41,892 bases of DNA from a candidate division WOR-3 bacterium (GCA_965649115.1 CBFGJN010000011.1:1-41892), one strand, 5' to 3'. Shown: positions 4,794-12,004, counted from the stretch's first letter. Notes: a model not told the origin generated them from the sequence alone. Numbers and translations are program-made.

Positions 4794-6170
4794 ATGATAA
4801 TCCTTTTTATATCAAGTTTAAATGTTTTATTTAAAGAACCAAATATATATGAGCTTTTATTTCCTTTAAAAAATCCTTATTTATTTAAAAGTTTTTATTT
4901 TATTATCTCTTTGAATTCAGATGTTTCTCAAAGTTCAGCAGTTAAATTAAATTATTCTCCGAATGGAATTTTAAGTGATAGCACTTTTATATATCAAAAA
5001 TTTATTTTTGGACAAAAAGGTGGATTTGATAATTTTTCTATTGGTTTTAAGAAAAATGAATTTCAAATAGATTTAAAAGCTCAATTTAATGAAGTTCTAT
5101 ATATTGAGACAAGTGAAGAAAATCAAATTCAAAATTTGGATATGATATTTGGTAAAATTAGAGATACAATATATCCAACAGATATTAGTGGTCTTGATAG
5201 AAGTCTTATTGTTGAATATAATTTTGACTCACTATATAGAAGAATTGATTTATCTTCCATGGGTAAATTTTCAATTTCTTCAAATCCAATTATTTTTGAA
5301 ATTGGCTATAAAAATTTTTTAGTTTCATCTGAATTTAGATTTATAACTCAAAGTGGAGATTTTATTGAATATGAAGCTAAGAACTTTTATCTTTCTTCAA
5401 GCCCAAAGGTGAAGTTTTTAAATTGCTCAAATTGTAAGTGGTTTGCTTATCTTTTTTCAAGTCCAAAAATTCCCTCACCTTTCAAAATAAAAAGAATTTT
5501 TAATGTAAGTGATAAAAGTCATTTTAGTTTTTATTTAACTTACTTTGATAATAAAACAATTTTAAGATTTGGTTATAGTCCTAAATTAATTATTGAAGGT
5601 GAAATAAATGATGAAATTTCCTATATTTCTCAAATAACAAATGTTGTTGATTCAATAGCTTATGATAAAAGTTCAAATTATCTTTATGCTACAAAAAATG
5701 GTGATACAATTGAAATTTCAAATTATGCTTTGATTTATCTATTTTTCAACTATAAAGATACTACTTATTCAAAAAAACTTAACTTTTTTTATGAAATTCC
5801 TCAAAATTTTATATTTGAATTTTATAGAAATTTTAGGTTTAAAAATGTTGATTTTTCGTTATTTTTTGGACAAAGAAGTTTATCCAATTTATATTTTGGG
5901 GCTTCAATAATTCACAAATTTTATAAAAAAACACTAATTAATTATGGTTATTTATACAATAGGAATTTTAGTTTTGGTTATCATAATGTTTTTATTAATT
6001 TTCTTGTACCAACTGGTAGATTTTTATTCAGTTTTGGTTCTCATATAACGATAAATAAGGAAGGTGAAGAAAAAATTATAAATTCACTGCTAAAAAATTA
6101 TCTTATTGATTATAAACCTTCAAATTATTTGTCATTTGGCATAAATCTTCAAATAAGTTATTTAAGGTAA
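4794..6170 (+). CDS. hypothetical protein, possible outer-membrane beta-barrel
   Basis: 458-aa ORF with aromatic-rich alternating strands and C-terminal LSFGINLQISYLR; short hydrophobic N-terminus. Confidence 0.55.
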   Translation: MIILFISSLNVLFKEPNIYELLFPLKNPYLFKSFYFIISLNSDVSQSSAVKLNYSPNGILSDSTFIYQKFIFGQKGGFDNFSIGFKKNEFQIDLKAQFNEVLYIETSEENQIQNLDMIFGKIRDTIYPTDISGLDRSLIVEYNFDSLYRRIDLSSMGKFSISSNPIIFEIGYKNFLVSSEFRFITQSGDFIEYEAKNFYLSSSPKVKFLNCSNCKWFAYLFSSPKIPSPFKIKRIFNVSDKSHFSFYLTYFDNKTILRFGYSPKLIIEGEINDEISYISQITNVVDSIAYDKSSNYLYATKNGDTIEISNYALIYLFFNYKDTTYSKKLNFFYEIPQNFIFEFYRNFRFKNVDFSLFFGQRSLSNLYFGASIIHKFYKKTLINYGYLYNRNFSFGYHNVFINFLVPTGRFLFSFGSHITINKEGEEKIINSLLKNYLIDYKPSNYLSFGINLQISYLR

Positions 6171-8049: not shown

Positions 8050-9471
8050 TTATTTTAAAATTTTAAGAACATAAGTTTTTGGTTCGTCAGTTTGATAAAC
8101 AATTTGAAATTTGTCTTTATATTTCAAAATTACAGGTAATAAGTACCTTTGAGTTGTTCCCGTCCAAAAGAAGTTATCAAGAATAACATAATCACAATCT
8201 TTTATACTTAAAAATACACTATCAACATTATAAGAAAATTTATAGACTTTACCCTTATTTCCTGCTATTAAATATACAAATTCAGGCTTTCTTGAAACGA
8301 TAATTTTATCCTTGGGAATATTATTTTTAATATAATTAATAGCTTCAAAAAATTTCTGCCAATCAGGAGAATATAAACTATATGGATTTTCCTTATATAA
8401 CATCCAATCATTTAAATTTTGAGGAATCCTTTGAATAATCAAGGAAAAGTTGAAAGCGAAGATAAAAGAGCAAATTAACTTAAAGATAGTTTTATTAAGA
8501 TAATTTAGTGAATTTAATGAGAAATAAAGAATGAATGGTAAAATAGGCAAAATAAATCTATCAGATGTCCAAACTTCTGGCCAAGAAAATGCAACTATTA
8601 AATAAAAAATTGAATAAATTTTCATAATTCCCAAATTTTTCTCTTTTAAAAATCCAATAAAAAATCCAATTAAAATTAAAATTCCAATTATATTTAGTAA
8701 AAATTCACTTTCTAAATTTATTATTGATTTTGGGATGATAAACAAGAAATAGCTCAAAAAATTGTTTAAAATTCTAAATATAAAGTCAGAAATTGAAATA
8801 TATCCAAGTTGAGGATTATAAACATTTTTATAGAAAAATTCTTGAATGTACGTTGTTTCATTTGGATTTTTGTGGAAAATTGTCCAAAGTTGCCAAGATA
8901 ATACAAAGATAGATGAAATAATTAAGCTTAAAACAGATAATTTAAATTTTCTTTTTAAAATTAAATCTAAGACTATTGAAAAAATTATTGAAATTCCAGC
9001 ATTTCTTATAAGAAAGGCAAAACCAGCAAATATAGATGAAAGAAGGAATTTTTGATTTGTGTAAAAAAATATAGATAATAAAGAAAACAATAAATAAGAT
9101 GGTTCTGAAAGTAATTTTGAACTATAATCAATTAATAAAGGGGATACTGACAGAGCTAAAAGAAAGTAGAAGTTCCTAAAAATTGTTGTTAATAGAAAAA
9201 ATGAAAAAATTGAAGAAATTAAGGGAACAATTTTTAAATAGGTTTCATTAGGTCCAAAAAACTTATAAAATATAGCTAAAATTAATGGAAAACCGGGTGG
9301 AAAATGTGTATGATATGGACTATTGAATAGATACAAGCTTAAATAATTGTGGTATTCAACTATTGATTTTGAAAGTATAATGTAAATTACATTATCTCCT
9401 CCTGTTCCCATTTTAATATCAAAAAGTAAAATACAAAAAATTGTGAAAATTATTAGAGGTAGATATATCAT
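8050..9471 (-). CDS. GT-C membrane glycosyltransferase (ArnT/PMT-like)
   Basis: GGDNVIY loop, HFPPGFP, LSEPSY, RFILP and many TM segments. Confidence 0.75.
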   Translation of the reverse strand: MIYLPLIIFTIFCILLFDIKMGTGGDNVIYIILSKSIVEYHNYLSLYLFNSPYHTHFPPGFPLILAIFYKFFGPNETYLKIVPLISSIFSFFLLTTIFRNFYFLLALSVSPLLIDYSSKLLSEPSYLLFSLLSIFFYTNQKFLLSSIFAGFAFLIRNAGISIIFSIVLDLILKRKFKLSVLSLIISSIFVLSWQLWTIFHKNPNETTYIQEFFYKNVYNPQLGYISISDFIFRILNNFLSYFLFIIPKSIINLESEFLLNIIGILILIGFFIGFLKEKNLGIMKIYSIFYLIVAFSWPEVWTSDRFILPILPFILYFSLNSLNYLNKTIFKLICSFIFAFNFSLIIQRIPQNLNDWMLYKENPYSLYSPDWQKFFEAINYIKNNIPKDKIIVSRKPEFVYLIAGNKGKVYKFSYNVDSVFLSIKDCDYVILDNFFWTGTTQRYLLPVILKYKDKFQIVYQTDEPKTYVLKILK

Positions 9472-9508: not shown

Positions 9509-12004
9509 ATGTTAGCTGAAAACTATAAAGCTAAAATTGTTCAATACATAAAAGAATTAGATTATAATGAAAGGTTAAATGTAGCGAGGAAATATCATTA
9601 TAACATTCATAAAGTTCCTTCTGAATTTTTTATTTTAGACTTATATAATTGTCCTAATGCTTTAAGCGAAGAGCAATATAGTGCATTGTTAAGAGGTGAT
9701 GAAGCTTATGCGGGAAGTGAAAATTTTATAAATATACTAAATAGTGTAAAAGAAATTTTTAAAAAGAATTTTGTAATTCCTGTTCATAATTTAAGGGGGG
9801 CTGAACATTTGATTTTAAAAGTTTTTGAAGGTGATTTTATATCAAATAATCCAACTGATACATTTAAGGTTTTATGTTCTTATTTCAATAGAAAAATTTT
9901 AAATAGAGGAAATGGAATTTATTACCTTACAATAGAAAGTGAATTTGAAAAGTTTTTAGAACTTTTAAAAATAAAAGAATTTAAAATTTTAAATGCAAGT
10001 AATATATTCTCTCAAATTGTTTTTTGGAAAATTGAAGGAAAGTTAAATAGTAATTTAAAGGATTTGGTTTATCAAATGACAAAAGATTTTGATATAATTG
10101 TTTTATCAGCAGATGCTGATTTAATGGGTCATGTCGGAGCTTTAATTATATTGAATGATGAAAATTATTATAGACAAATTAGTGAATGGCTTGTTTCATT
10201 TGAAGGTCTTCATACTTATGGAGGACTTGCTGGTAGAGATATGGAATTAATAGCGGTTAGTTTAAATCAAGTTTTGGATGAAAGTTATTGGCATTATAGA
10301 TATTATGAAATAAAGAATTTATATGAGAGGGTAAAAAATTTGGGTTATAATGTTAGGGATTTTAGTAGTGAAGGATTTTATATTGATATTGAAAATGGTA
10401 TTGGTTTTAATTTAGCTTTATTTCTATCAGGGCAGATTAGAGTTAAAGCTTATGACAATAAAGTATTTTTAAGAATTCCCAAAAGAGTATATTTTAGAGA
10501 GCATTACGATTATCTTTTAAAAGTTTTAAGTTATTTGAAAGATAAAAATTATCCTAATTTAAAAAAGTTGTTTGAAACAAAATTTTATGAAATTGAGATT
10601 ATGGACTATGAGCTATTAGAACCATTAGAAAAGTACGAAGTTGTTGATTATGATGGATTTAATTATAGATTAAAAGGAATAGAAATTATTTTTAATAAGT
10701 CAAAAGATAAAAGATTACAAGCAATAGAAGAAGCAGGTTATAATACATTTTTACTTAAAAGTGAAGATGTTTATATTGATTTATTAACAGATTCAGGAAC
10801 ATCCTCACAAAGTGATGAACAAATTTTTGAAGGATTAAAATACGATGGTAAAAATGCTTTTGATGTGTTAAAAGAAAGTATTTATGATATTTTTGGATTT
10901 GACAAATTTATAATTACACATCAAGGAAGACAGGCTGAGCACTTTATATCACAACACTTAATAAGAAAAGGACAATATGTCTTAAATAATATGTACTTTA
11001 CAACAACAAGATTTCATCAAGAATATGCAGGTGGTATTTTTGTTGATTTAATAGTTAAAGAAGCACATATTCCAGATAATCCTTATCCATTTAAAGGTGA
11101 TTTTGATATTGATGCTGTTGAAAATTTTATTAAAGAAAAAGGTTCTCAAAACATTGCTTACATTTGTATTGAAACGAATGTTAATATGGCAGGAGGACAA
11201 CCAATATCACTGAGAAATATAAAAAAATTAAGAGAAATTGCTGACTACTATAAAATTCCTATTGTTTTTGATGCAACAAGAATTGCTGAAAATGCATATT
11301 TCATAAAAGAAAGAGAAGAAGGATATAGAAACAAGACAATAAGAGAAATTGTTAGAGAAATTTTAAGTTATGGTGATTTTGCTACAATTTCTGCTAAAAA
11401 AGATCCTCTAACTAATATAAGTGGTTTATTGTTAATTAGGGATGATAAAATTTATCGTAAAATTTATGAGTTTGCTACTGCATTTGATGGTGCTCCTTAT
11501 AATGGTGGATTAGCAGATAGGGATTTAATAATGCTTGCTATTGGTCTTAAAGAAATGGTTGATTATGATTATTTAAGAAGTAGAATAAAACAAGTTGAGT
11601 ATCTTGGAAATAAATTAATAGAAAATAAAATACCATTAGTTCTTCCAACTGGTGGTCATGCTATATATCTTGATGCAAAAAAATTTTTAGAGCACTTAGA
11701 CCAAGATTACTATCCCGCACAAGCTCTTGCTGCTGAAATTTTTATTGAAGGTGGGGTTAGGACTATGGAAAGAGGGACTGTTTCAGCAGGTAGAGATCCT
11801 ATTACAGGTAAAAATAGAAAACCAAGTTTAGAACTTGTTAGAATTACAATTCCAAGGAGAGTATATTCAAATAGTCAAATGGACCACGTTGTTGAAACAA
11901 TTGTTAATGTTTATAATAGAAGATTTGAAATAAAAGGACTTGAATTTGTTTATGAGCCACCATTTTTAAGGTTCTTTACAGCAAGGTTTAAAAAGAGAAA
12001 TTAA
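9509..12004 (+). CDS. tpl: tandem two-domain tyrosine phenol-lyase-like beta-eliminating lyase (degenerate N-half, PLP-binding C-half)
   Basis: C-half has IDLLTDSG, HQGR, NMYFTTTR, FDATR, SAKKD, MERG, LRFFTARF; N-half has GDEAYAGSENF and YGGLAGRDME but SADAD in place of SAKKD. Confidence 0.85.
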   Translation: MLAENYKAKIVQYIKELDYNERLNVARKYHYNIHKVPSEFFILDLYNCPNALSEEQYSALLRGDEAYAGSENFINILNSVKEIFKKNFVIPVHNLRGAEHLILKVFEGDFISNNPTDTFKVLCSYFNRKILNRGNGIYYLTIESEFEKFLELLKIKEFKILNASNIFSQIVFWKIEGKLNSNLKDLVYQMTKDFDIIVLSADADLMGHVGALIILNDENYYRQISEWLVSFEGLHTYGGLAGRDMELIAVSLNQVLDESYWHYRYYEIKNLYERVKNLGYNVRDFSSEGFYIDIENGIGFNLALFLSGQIRVKAYDNKVFLRIPKRVYFREHYDYLLKVLSYLKDKNYPNLKKLFETKFYEIEIMDYELLEPLEKYEVVDYDGFNYRLKGIEIIFNKSKDKRLQAIEEAGYNTFLLKSEDVYIDLLTDSGTSSQSDEQIFEGLKYDGKNAFDVLKESIYDIFGFDKFIITHQGRQAEHFISQHLIRKGQYVLNNMYFTTTRFHQEYAGGIFVDLIVKEAHIPDNPYPFKGDFDIDAVENFIKEKGSQNIAYICIETNVNMAGGQPISLRNIKKLREIADYYKIPIVFDATRIAENAYFIKEREEGYRNKTIREIVREILSYGDFATISAKKDPLTNISGLLLIRDDKIYRKIYEFATAFDGAPYNGGLADRDLIMLAIGLKEMVDYDYLRSRIKQVEYLGNKLIENKIPLVLPTGGHAIYLDAKKFLEHLDQDYYPAQALAAEIFIEGGVRTMERGTVSAGRDPITGKNRKPSLELVRITIPRRVYSNSQMDHVVETIVNVYNRRFEIKGLEFVYEPPFLRFFTARFKKRN

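Follow-up and report, generated by a model that had tools for sequence, protein, structure and literature searches.

Why would a bacterium keep, within one reading frame, two copies of a lyase domain when one of them has lost the lysine that binds the cofactor? The question is raised by a tandem gene in a 41,892-nucleotide (nt) stretch of DNA, here called the window, from a candidate division WOR-3 bacterium (GCA_965649115.1, CBFGJN010000011.1:1-41892), whose guanine-plus-cytosine (GC) content is about 26%. A single unbroken open reading frame (ORF) at 9509..12004 on the plus strand encodes 831 amino acids (aa) in two halves, both of which resemble tyrosine phenol-lyase (TPL), an enzyme that uses pyridoxal phosphate (PLP). 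Based on sequence comparison and structure models, we consider it likely that the gene encodes a natural single-chain pseudo-heterodimer of TPL, with one composite active site per chain at the interface of the N-terminal and C-terminal halves (N-half and C-half) and a mirror site that is dead. A first-pass annotation of the locus had proposed such a fused, subfunctionalised dimer with one composite site, and the comparisons and models described here support it.

One reading frame with two unlike halves

The gene and its main parts, all on the plus strand, are:

9509..12004, plus strand: whole tandem TPL-like gene, 831 aa, with the stop codon TAA at 12002-12004
9509..10657, plus strand: N-half, aa 1-383, a trimmed TPL-like pseudo-subunit with no PLP lysine (PF01212, PDB sequences, family alignment)
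10616..10663, plus strand: linker, about aa 370-385, between the last N-half strand and the first C-half strand (AlphaFold2 secondary structure; blocks of predicted local distance difference test, pLDDT, 95-96)
10658..12001, plus strand: C-half, aa 384-831, a complete TPL-type catalytic domain (PF01212, PDB sequences, Foldseek, NCBIfam)

The boundary near aa 383 suggested by the first-pass annotation is correct, and all 14 motifs that it had listed were recovered at the residues it named. PF01212 (Beta_elim_lyase) matches the whole protein twice, strongly at aa 424-796 and weakly at aa 50-105. Scanned one at a time, the C-half reached 207.2 bits and the N-half 40.6, both above the gathering cut-off of 27, so that both are members of the family. 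Identity between the two halves is 23.5% over 361 aligned columns.

The N/C junction is not an assembly artefact. It is bridged with 0 differences by Logan contigs of two hot-spring runs (X4 record 13, 9963-10889; X1 record 4, 10580-11888), which may include the source sample and so are perhaps not independent. Among 12 related genomes with a nearly full-length match to the N-half (E-value 1e-105 or better), 11 have open frames of 834-872 aa, and the twelfth (G136) has a frame of 539 aa. The ratio of nonsynonymous to synonymous substitution (dN/dS) against the closest genome, calculated with an in-house Nei-Gojobori script, is 0.13 for the N-half, 0.127 for the N-half minus its two conserved motifs and 0.058 for the C-half, at a dS of about 0.5. 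The N-half is being maintained and is not decaying, and purifying selection acts on both halves.

The C-half is a TPL-type PLP domain

Compared with PDB sequences, the C-half matches TPL at E-values of 1.1e-154 (1c7g) and 1.8e-153 (2ez1), with tryptophanases next at about 1e-108. Its residues 3-444 align to TPL 8-453 with a sole gap of 4 residues (TPL 61-64). The AlphaFold2 model superposes on TPL chains (Foldseek ranks 1-15) with target-normalised TM-scores of 0.94-0.97 and root-mean-square deviations of 1.2-2.2 Å. The motifs of the C-half are listed below with their TPL equivalents.

10775..10798, plus strand: IDLLTDSG, aa 423-430; TPL Thr49, Asp50, Ser51, Gly52
10832..10861, plus strand: GLKYDGKNAF, aa 442-451; degenerate GDEAY remnant, 4 residues shorter, facing the dead N-half pocket in the model
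10919..10930, plus strand: HQGR, aa 471-474; TPL Gln98, Gly99, Arg100
10988..11011, plus strand: NMYFTTTR, aa 494-501; Phe123 and the TPL-specific Thr124 (PMC5805759)
11267..11281, plus strand: FDATR, aa 587-591; TPL Asp214, Thr216, Arg217
11390..11404, plus strand: SAKKD, aa 628-632; K631 (codon 11399-11401) is the PLP lysine, Lys257 (PMC10170061)
11498..11530, plus strand: YNGGLADRDLI, aa 664-674; degenerate remnant of the 288-298 loop, with Tyr291 changed to Asn
11765..11776, plus strand: MERG, aa 753-756; the TPL-specific Met379 and Arg381 (PMC5805759)
11966..11989, plus strand: LRFFTARF, aa 820-827; TPL Phe448 and Phe449

The PLP lysine and the PLP-binding residues of TPL are therefore present (K631, D588, R474, S628), and they are kept in 119/119 C-halves of the family alignment described below. 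Five residues discriminate TPL from tryptophanase (Thr124, Met288, Met379, Arg381 and Phe448 versus Asp137, Phe304, Val394, Ile396 and His463; PMC5805759). The C-half carries the TPL-type T498, M753, R755 and F822, as do all 119 C-halves, while the fifth residue, Met288, corresponds to Leu234 of the N-half; Leu is likewise found in 77 of 82 stand-alone TPL-type proteins. The best NCBIfam model of both the C-half and the whole protein is the TPL equivalog TIGR02618. The only model to pass its cut-off is NF009709, a 'tryptophanase' subfamily model (541.9 bits for the C-half and 692.4 for the whole protein; cut-off 285), which explains the public 'tryptophanase' names of the tandem homologs. As the first-pass annotation stated, the C-half has GLKYDGKNAF in the place of GDEAYAGSENF, and the change is more precisely a 4-residue deletion plus substitutions.

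The N-half is a trimmed copy without the PLP lysine

The N-half matches tryptophanase and TPL chains among PDB sequences at E-values of 1e-34 to 1e-32, in pieces covering aa 3-115, 164-283 and 320-354. In the family alignment it is without equivalents of TPL 142-173, 182-194, 354-365 and 382-399, and 87 positions are missing in total. Its motifs are:

9695..9727, plus strand: GDEAYAGSENF, aa 63-73; contains TPL Glu69 and Tyr71 (Y67, codon 9707-9709), proposed trans element, with Tyr in 118/119 N-halves
9785..9796, plus strand: HNLR, aa 93-96; in place of the phosphate-binding HQGR
9992..10003, plus strand: NASN, aa 162-165; in place of DATR, with Asp214 and Arg217 lost
10106..10120, plus strand: SADAD, aa 200-204; in place of SxKKD, with no Schiff-base lysine
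10202..10246, plus strand: EGLHTYGGLAGRDME, aa 232-246; L234 and Y237 equal TPL Met288 and Tyr291, second proposed trans element

GDEAY with Tyr71, which TPL has in each subunit, occurs here in the N-half only (Y67). With two homologous halves per chain, one bearing the cofactor lysine and the other the putative trans-acting residues, the protein belongs to the single-chain pseudo-heterodimeric PLP enzymes, which are a functional grouping and not a sequence family.

Reciprocal conservation in tandem homologs

A search with the whole protein listed 120 matches, comprising 118 tandem proteins of 821-955 aa and two records of 467 aa (P0017 and P0020). With the window protein included and the two 467-aa records left out, the tandem set consisted of 119 proteins. 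These were split at the start of the C-half, and all halves were aligned together with a tryptophanase paralog. The named sources of the tandem homologs are Hydrothermia/WOR-3, Calescibacterium, Nitrospirota, Deltaproteobacteria, Aminicenantes, Eisenbacteria, KSB1 and bacterium HR21. A set of 21 residues that act within the PLP-bearing subunit of TPL was fixed in advance: Phe36, Thr49, Asp50, Ser51, Gln98, Gly99, Arg100, Phe123, Thr124, Asn185, Asp214, Thr216, Arg217, Ser254, Lys256, Lys257, Met379, Arg381, Arg404, Phe448 and Phe449.

All 21 same-subunit residues are present in all 119 C-halves, whereas the N-halves retain between 1 and 9 of them (2 in the window protein). Column 257, that of the PLP lysine, has no Lys in 115/119 N-halves, which have mainly Glu (51) or Gln (39) there. 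The partner-side motifs show the opposite distribution. GDEAYAG is found in 118/119 N-halves, that is, in all with a complete N-terminus, the exception (P0051) being N-terminally cut. Leu288, Thr290, Tyr291, Gly292 and Gly293 are present in 119/119 N-halves, and His289 in 118/119. Among the C-halves, the Tyr71 column of the family alignment holds no Tyr (0/119); it is a gap in 28 and otherwise Glu, Pro, Ala, Leu or others, and any Tyr within the seven motif columns occurs in only 31/119. At column 291, no fewer than 111/119 C-halves carry Ser, Asp, Asn or Thr (the four commonest residues counted), and the 288-291 loop is variable. Positions conserved at 95% or more number 28 in the N-halves versus 136 in the C-halves, and 16 of the 28 lie within TPL 67-77 and 283-299. 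Reciprocal motif loss, for which the first-pass annotation had suggested looking at homologs of about 830-900 aa, is thus very cleanly conserved across the 119 tandem proteins.

Structure models

An AlphaFold2 model of the whole chain, based on the 119-row alignment, has a mean pLDDT of 94.6 and a predicted template modelling score (pTM) of 0.92, with no segment below 50. The pLDDT is 95-96 in the 10-residue blocks spanning the linker (aa 361-390), and each half begins with an N-terminal strand (E6-13 and E386-393). Two-chain ESMFold2 models, in which the C-half with PLP was paired with the N-half as partner, scored 0.92, 0.91 and 0.92 in three runs, with 0.00 for the best control. Of 157 solved complexes, 116 reach the mark used for this score, as do 2 of 215 mismatched pairs; this calibration is only approximate here because our own alignment and a ligand were used. 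Contact agreement between the runs was at least 92%, and the pLDDT of the partner was 92 or more.

In the modelled interface, N-half residues 64-71 (including Y67), 229-235 and 239-244 are set against active-site residues of the C-half. The C-half contacts of these segments are 413-419 (F414 is Phe36), 426-427 (T427 is Thr49), 429-432 (Ser51, Gly52), 471-475 (Gln98, Arg100), 636-637 (Asn262) and 823-824 (Phe449). The modelled pair of C-half 636 and N-half 65 would be the Asn262-Glu69 pair, which we take to be the cation site of TPL. On the mirror side of the interface, C-half residues 446-452 and 657-672 face N-half residues 35-49, 93-100 and 208-209. The first-pass annotation had suggested testing in a model whether Y67 inserts beside K631-PLP; at the level of interface residue lists, the models agree with such an insertion.

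A proposed composite active site

By homology to tryptophanase, Tyr71 of TPL would be donated by the partner subunit. In tryptophanase of E. coli, Tyr74 and Tyr307 of one subunit form bonds, through their hydroxyl groups, with the phosphate of the PLP bound by the other subunit of the catalytic dimer (PMC2770544), and in the Proteus enzyme Tyr-72*, from the other chain of the catalytic dimer, is the proton donor to the leaving group (PMC11301627). In TPL, Tyr71 serves as general acid and Arg381 as general base; the PLP lysine is Lys257, located at an interface where the subunit meets the large domain of its neighbour (PMC10170061). Tyr74 and Tyr307 are the equivalents of TPL Tyr71 and Tyr291, because Phe304 is equivalent to Met288 (PMC5805759). 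The two tyrosines that never vary among the N-halves and have gone from the C-halves thus correspond exactly to the trans-acting pair.

We therefore suggest the following mechanism. The C-half would act as a complete TPL-type domain that binds PLP at K631 and supplies Thr124, Asp214, Arg217, Met379, Arg381, Arg404, Phe448 and Phe449 (TPL numbering). The N-half would pack on it like the second subunit of a TPL catalytic dimer, and would donate in trans Tyr67 (Tyr71, the general acid), Glu65 and the loop Leu234-His235-Thr236-Tyr237 (Met288 to Tyr291). At the mirror site, a lysine-free N-half pocket would lie opposite degenerate C-half motifs; the dead second site of the first-pass annotation is supported. 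A role of the motifs in holding the interface together would predict that both are kept in both halves. The interface is pseudo-symmetric, yet the tyrosines are kept on one side only; this one-sided pattern fits a single site and suggests that the constraint comes from that active site and not from the interface as such. From this arrangement we infer the PLP stoichiometry, the tyrosine phenol-lyase activity and the trans action of Tyr67 and Tyr237. The oligomer is probably a dimer of chains that would mimic the TPL tetramer; going by the sequence, a homotetramer of 456-aa subunits is impossible for this protein.

Several observations weigh against this interpretation. Four of the 119 N-halves (P0010, P0012, P0013 and P0014, all in the subclade of the window protein) do have Lys in column 257, within the motifs DATKD, DASKD and DASKG; since most of the other listed PLP-binding residues are missing from them, this Lys is probably incidental. 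The TIGR02618 cut-off of 720.7 bits is missed by both the C-half (589) and the whole protein (712.6). Alignments of the GDEAY region of the C-half differ: HMMER sets Y445 (in KYDG) against TPL Tyr71, whereas the family alignment gaps E-A-Y-A, and a Tyr stands at the HMMER-aligned position in 23/28 subclade C-halves. The claim that the partner subunit gives the general-acid Tyr is documented for the sister enzyme tryptophanase (PMC2770544), while for TPL itself the trans origin of Tyr71 follows from homology to tryptophanase and from general background. The modelled geometry consists of interface residue lists. TPL and tryptophanase homodimers have been solved, and where solved dimers of homologs exist a model may score well simply by reproducing them, so the two-chain pass indicates likeness to these homodimers and is not independent proof. 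Lastly, the FastTree topology discussed below contains many long N-half branches.

Alternative explanations

The same composite site might be formed between chains, in a domain-swapped dimer whose C-halves are each completed by the N-half of a different chain. The conservation data demand N-to-C pairing only, not pairing within one chain. The tetramers of TPL and tryptophanase have interlocked N-terminal arms (PMC10170061, PMC2770544), and both halves of the tandem protein keep the N-terminal strand. However, the single-chain AlphaFold2 model is confident overall and across the linker, and with the queries used no separate genes for the two halves turned up, in keeping with an intrachain unit. 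These two points do not settle the matter, and we judge a swap to be quite unlikely. Still less probable, in our estimate a few chances in a hundred, is a C-half that is active alone or as C-half:C-half dimers, with Y445 as general acid and the N-half a mere scaffold or solubility domain. The HMMER placement of Y445 and its frequency within the subclade speak for such an enzyme, as do P0017 and P0020, whose start at Met365 makes a C-half-only product conceivable. Yet the Tyr71 column is devoid of Tyr in the family alignment, most C-halves have no Tyr anywhere in the motif, and the Tyr291 equivalent has been replaced in nearly all of them. Both N-half tyrosines are invariant, which a mere scaffold would not need, and the N-half is under purifying selection outside its motifs as well. 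In the predicted arrangement Y445 would point into the dead N-half pocket, although the sequence leaves room for a role of this residue.

A different question is whether the composite site serves tyrosine cleavage. The physiological reaction might run in reverse and make tyrosine out of phenol, pyruvate and ammonia, or might involve another phenolic amino acid, either of which would be compatible with the single-chain pseudo-heterodimer. The TPL reaction is reversible (PMC10170061), the score lies below the TPL equivalog cut-off, the gene neighbours are not informative, and the trans loop reads Leu-His-Thr versus Met-Pro-Ser in Citrobacter TPL. Nevertheless, Thr124, Met379, Arg381, Phe448 and Phe449 are kept in 119/119 C-halves, and the Leu-His-Thr-Tyr loop is usual in stand-alone TPL-type proteins (77/82 of a biased sample), so that we consider another reaction unlikely. 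Finally, an assembly or annotation artefact, or a decaying duplicate, can be rejected with near certainty: 119 full-length homologs, open frames in 11/12 relatives, contigs across the junction and the dN/dS values of both halves all stand against it, and no support for it was found.

Distribution and evolution

A FastTree phylogeny of 356 rows (119 N-halves, 119 C-halves, the two fragments, 115 stand-alone proteins and the tryptophanase paralog) places all N-halves in one clade (support 100) and the C-halves plus the two fragments in another (support 98). Both clades fall on the TPL side of the tryptophanase-type proteins. As FastTree is a quick method and many N-half branches are long, the deeper branching order was not trusted. 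The subclade of the window protein contains the same 28 proteins in the N-half and the C-half clade; its C-half motif is shortened by the 4-residue deletion, and its N-halves, at 372-441 aa, are the shortest (mostly 422-504 elsewhere). At the other extreme, the N-halves of P0049 and P0042 retain 9/21 residues (including Asp50, Gly99, Arg100, Asp214, Arg217, Ser254 and Lys256, with Glu at 257), and in their C-half motifs, ADESAAGS and GDESPAGS, only the Tyr has been lost. The N-half loop EGLHTYGG is identical to that of 77/82 stand-alone TPL-type proteins; as these proteins were collected with N-half words, the sample is biased.

Matches at E <= 1e-20 were found in 21 of 201 sampled genomes of the phylum, the source genome (G000) included, with 6/6 genomes of its own family, 7/11 of a second family and 5/5 of a third. 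Thirteen matches besides that of G000 itself have E-values of 1e-105 to 1e-228, except for a contig-end fragment in G132 (5.5e-40), and the frames that contain the matches in the third family measure 706-975 aa. Ordinary single-domain genes of 450-460 aa are among the remaining matches, so the genome counts cannot be read as numbers of tandem genes.

Stand-alone N-half genes were not found with the queries used, in either a word-index search (210-671 aa) or a phmmer search of 1.84 billion representatives. The only matches above the canonical background in the word-index search, P0122 and P0123, are both cut-off tandem proteins. The phmmer search returned 17 matches at E <= 1e-30, comprising tandem forms, shorter records of 105-706 aa and P0248, an ordinary 457-aa tryptophanase-type protein. 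Of the short records that were checked, P0122 and P0246 are cut-off tandem proteins, and P0251 and P0252 each consist of one domain preceded by an N-terminal extension. Among full-length single-domain proteins, this exhaustive search found none that exceeded the canonical level.

Thirteen loci with matches of about 2.7 kilobases in genome contigs were suspected to be split or fused forms, and only L005 is fused. Nine (L008, L029, L031, L050, L065, L073, L077, L079 and L081) are adjacent complete tryptophanase-type and complete TPL-type genes; by record title, their metagenome-assembled genomes are mostly Bacteroidota or Gammaproteobacteria. L021 and L064 are tryptophanase-type/TPL-type pairs with the first gene cut at a contig end, and the first frame of L063 is not lyase-like.

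Some related forms were observed. P0245 (902 aa), P0249 (909 aa) and P0250 (870 aa) are tandem beta-eliminating lyases with the SxKK lysine in both halves. GDEAYAGS and EGMP[F/S/T]YGG are found in their N-halves; in the C-half the loop has degenerated and positions 381 and 448 lack the TPL-type residues. These proteins may represent either a separate lineage or an earlier step towards the same asymmetry. P0251 (625 aa), P0252 (706 aa), P0273 (677 aa) and P0303 (623 aa) have a complete single lyase domain, mostly tryptophanase-type, behind an N-terminal extension of 170-250 aa, which in P0252 resembles a remnant of the lyase small domain without GDEAY or the loop. P0017 and P0020, both named 'tryptophanase', are 94% and 83% identical to the C-half and have the internal Met365 (MDYELLEPL...) as their very first residue. 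The N-half may thus be missing from some public gene calls, which would hide the architecture, which the 'tryptophanase' naming also makes easy to overlook.

A broader scenario can be drawn from these data, though as a whole we regard it as rather speculative and unlikely. The tandem TPLs might be an undescribed multi-phylum class that arose by one ancient fusion and underwent stepwise subfunctionalisation (from 9/21 to 2/21 same-subunit residues), with the N-half pocket now serving as a regulatory ligand site for allosteric control. In this pocket, xxRED or DxxQD is conserved within subclades, and Asp214 is kept in 84/119 and Arg100 in 69/119 N-halves.

Genomic context and expression

The neighbours of the gene are unrelated housekeeping genes on the opposite strand, and therefore give no clue to function. 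Two ORFs in the window had no Pfam match at E <= 1e-5:

8050..9471, minus strand: 473 aa, divergent from and 37 bases upstream of the TPL gene; product resembles a multi-pass membrane protein
4794..6170, plus strand: 458 aa

A separate, complete tryptophanase-type gene of 452 aa with all motifs intact is present in the same genome (contig C6, L001 1372..2730, minus strand). At the positions of Thr124, Met379, Arg381 and Phe448 this paralog has Asp, Val, Val and His; the organism thus has an ordinary tryptophanase in addition to the tandem TPL.

A promoter and terminator scan gave 28 promoter-like sites, versus 19.3 +/- 4.2 expected, and 0 terminators, which is uninformative in DNA of 26% GC. 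One 194-nt contig from a sediment metatranscriptome library (X20) matches the N-half at 9947..10140 with 0 differences; this is too little to claim transcription, as DNA can occur in RNA libraries. Parts of the gene that are uncovered in X1 or X5 carry no meaning.

Comparison with known systems

The nearest relative is TPL of Citrobacter freundii and Erwinia herbicola (EC 4.1.99.2; 2ez1, 1tpl, 1c7g). The C-half has the same fold, about 50% identity and all of the same-subunit residues, and the predicted N/C interface would use the segments of the catalytic dimer. Unlike TPL, which is built from identical 456-aa subunits, the tandem protein is one chain of two unlike halves, with one potential site per domain pair versus two. 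The general-acid Tyr and the 288-291 loop are found only in the lysine-less half, which is also the half that is 87 positions shorter. Tryptophanase (EC 4.1.99.1; 1ax4, 2c44) belongs to the same family and shares the dimer logic, in that its Tyr74 and Tyr307, or Tyr-72*, reach the PLP of the neighbour (PMC2770544, PMC11301627). In contrast to tryptophanase, the C-half has Thr124, Met379, Arg381 and Phe448, not Asp, Val, Ile and His (PMC5805759).

Serine palmitoyltransferase (SPT; LCB1/LCB2) is also a fold-type I PLP enzyme, of an unrelated subfamily (alpha-oxoamine synthases) and with different chemistry. LCB1 is without the PLP lysine, and a single site lies at the LCB1/LCB2 interface. The SPT subunits are fused in one gene in most coccolithoviruses, the viruses of Emiliania huxleyi (PMC5371807). 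The tandem TPL differs from SPT in having arisen within bacteria, when one TPL-type gene was duplicated. In mammalian membrane adenylyl cyclase (C1/C2), a homodimeric enzyme has been duplicated and fused, leaving one active site and a degenerate one where the two parts meet pseudo-symmetrically. Here the likeness is one of concept only, as fold and chemistry are unrelated. The degenerate site of adenylyl cyclase is known to bind a regulator; in tandem TPL such binding would be hypothetical.

To our knowledge, TPL and tryptophanase have always been described as homotetramers in which active sites are shared by two identical subunits. No description of a tandem or fused TPL or tryptophanase was found in a full-text literature search that left most subscription journals out. 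The tandem protein thus seems to join a known enzyme family to a known evolutionary principle in a combination not described before. Thermophilic and other uncultured bacteria are the source of the tandem proteins. Since L-DOPA is made industrially with TPL (PMC10170061), a version in one chain that is probably stable to heat may find practical application. The family, in which at least 119 sequences represent different stages, offers a rare and well-sampled case of reciprocal loss after duplication and fusion, and a clean natural experiment to tell residues that act in cis from those that act in trans. In a homo-oligomer such as TPL, a mutation hits both roles of a residue at once, whereas the tandem chain separates them, so that the partner-side equivalents of Tyr71, Tyr291, Met288 and Glu69 could be mutated without touching the PLP-bearing domain.

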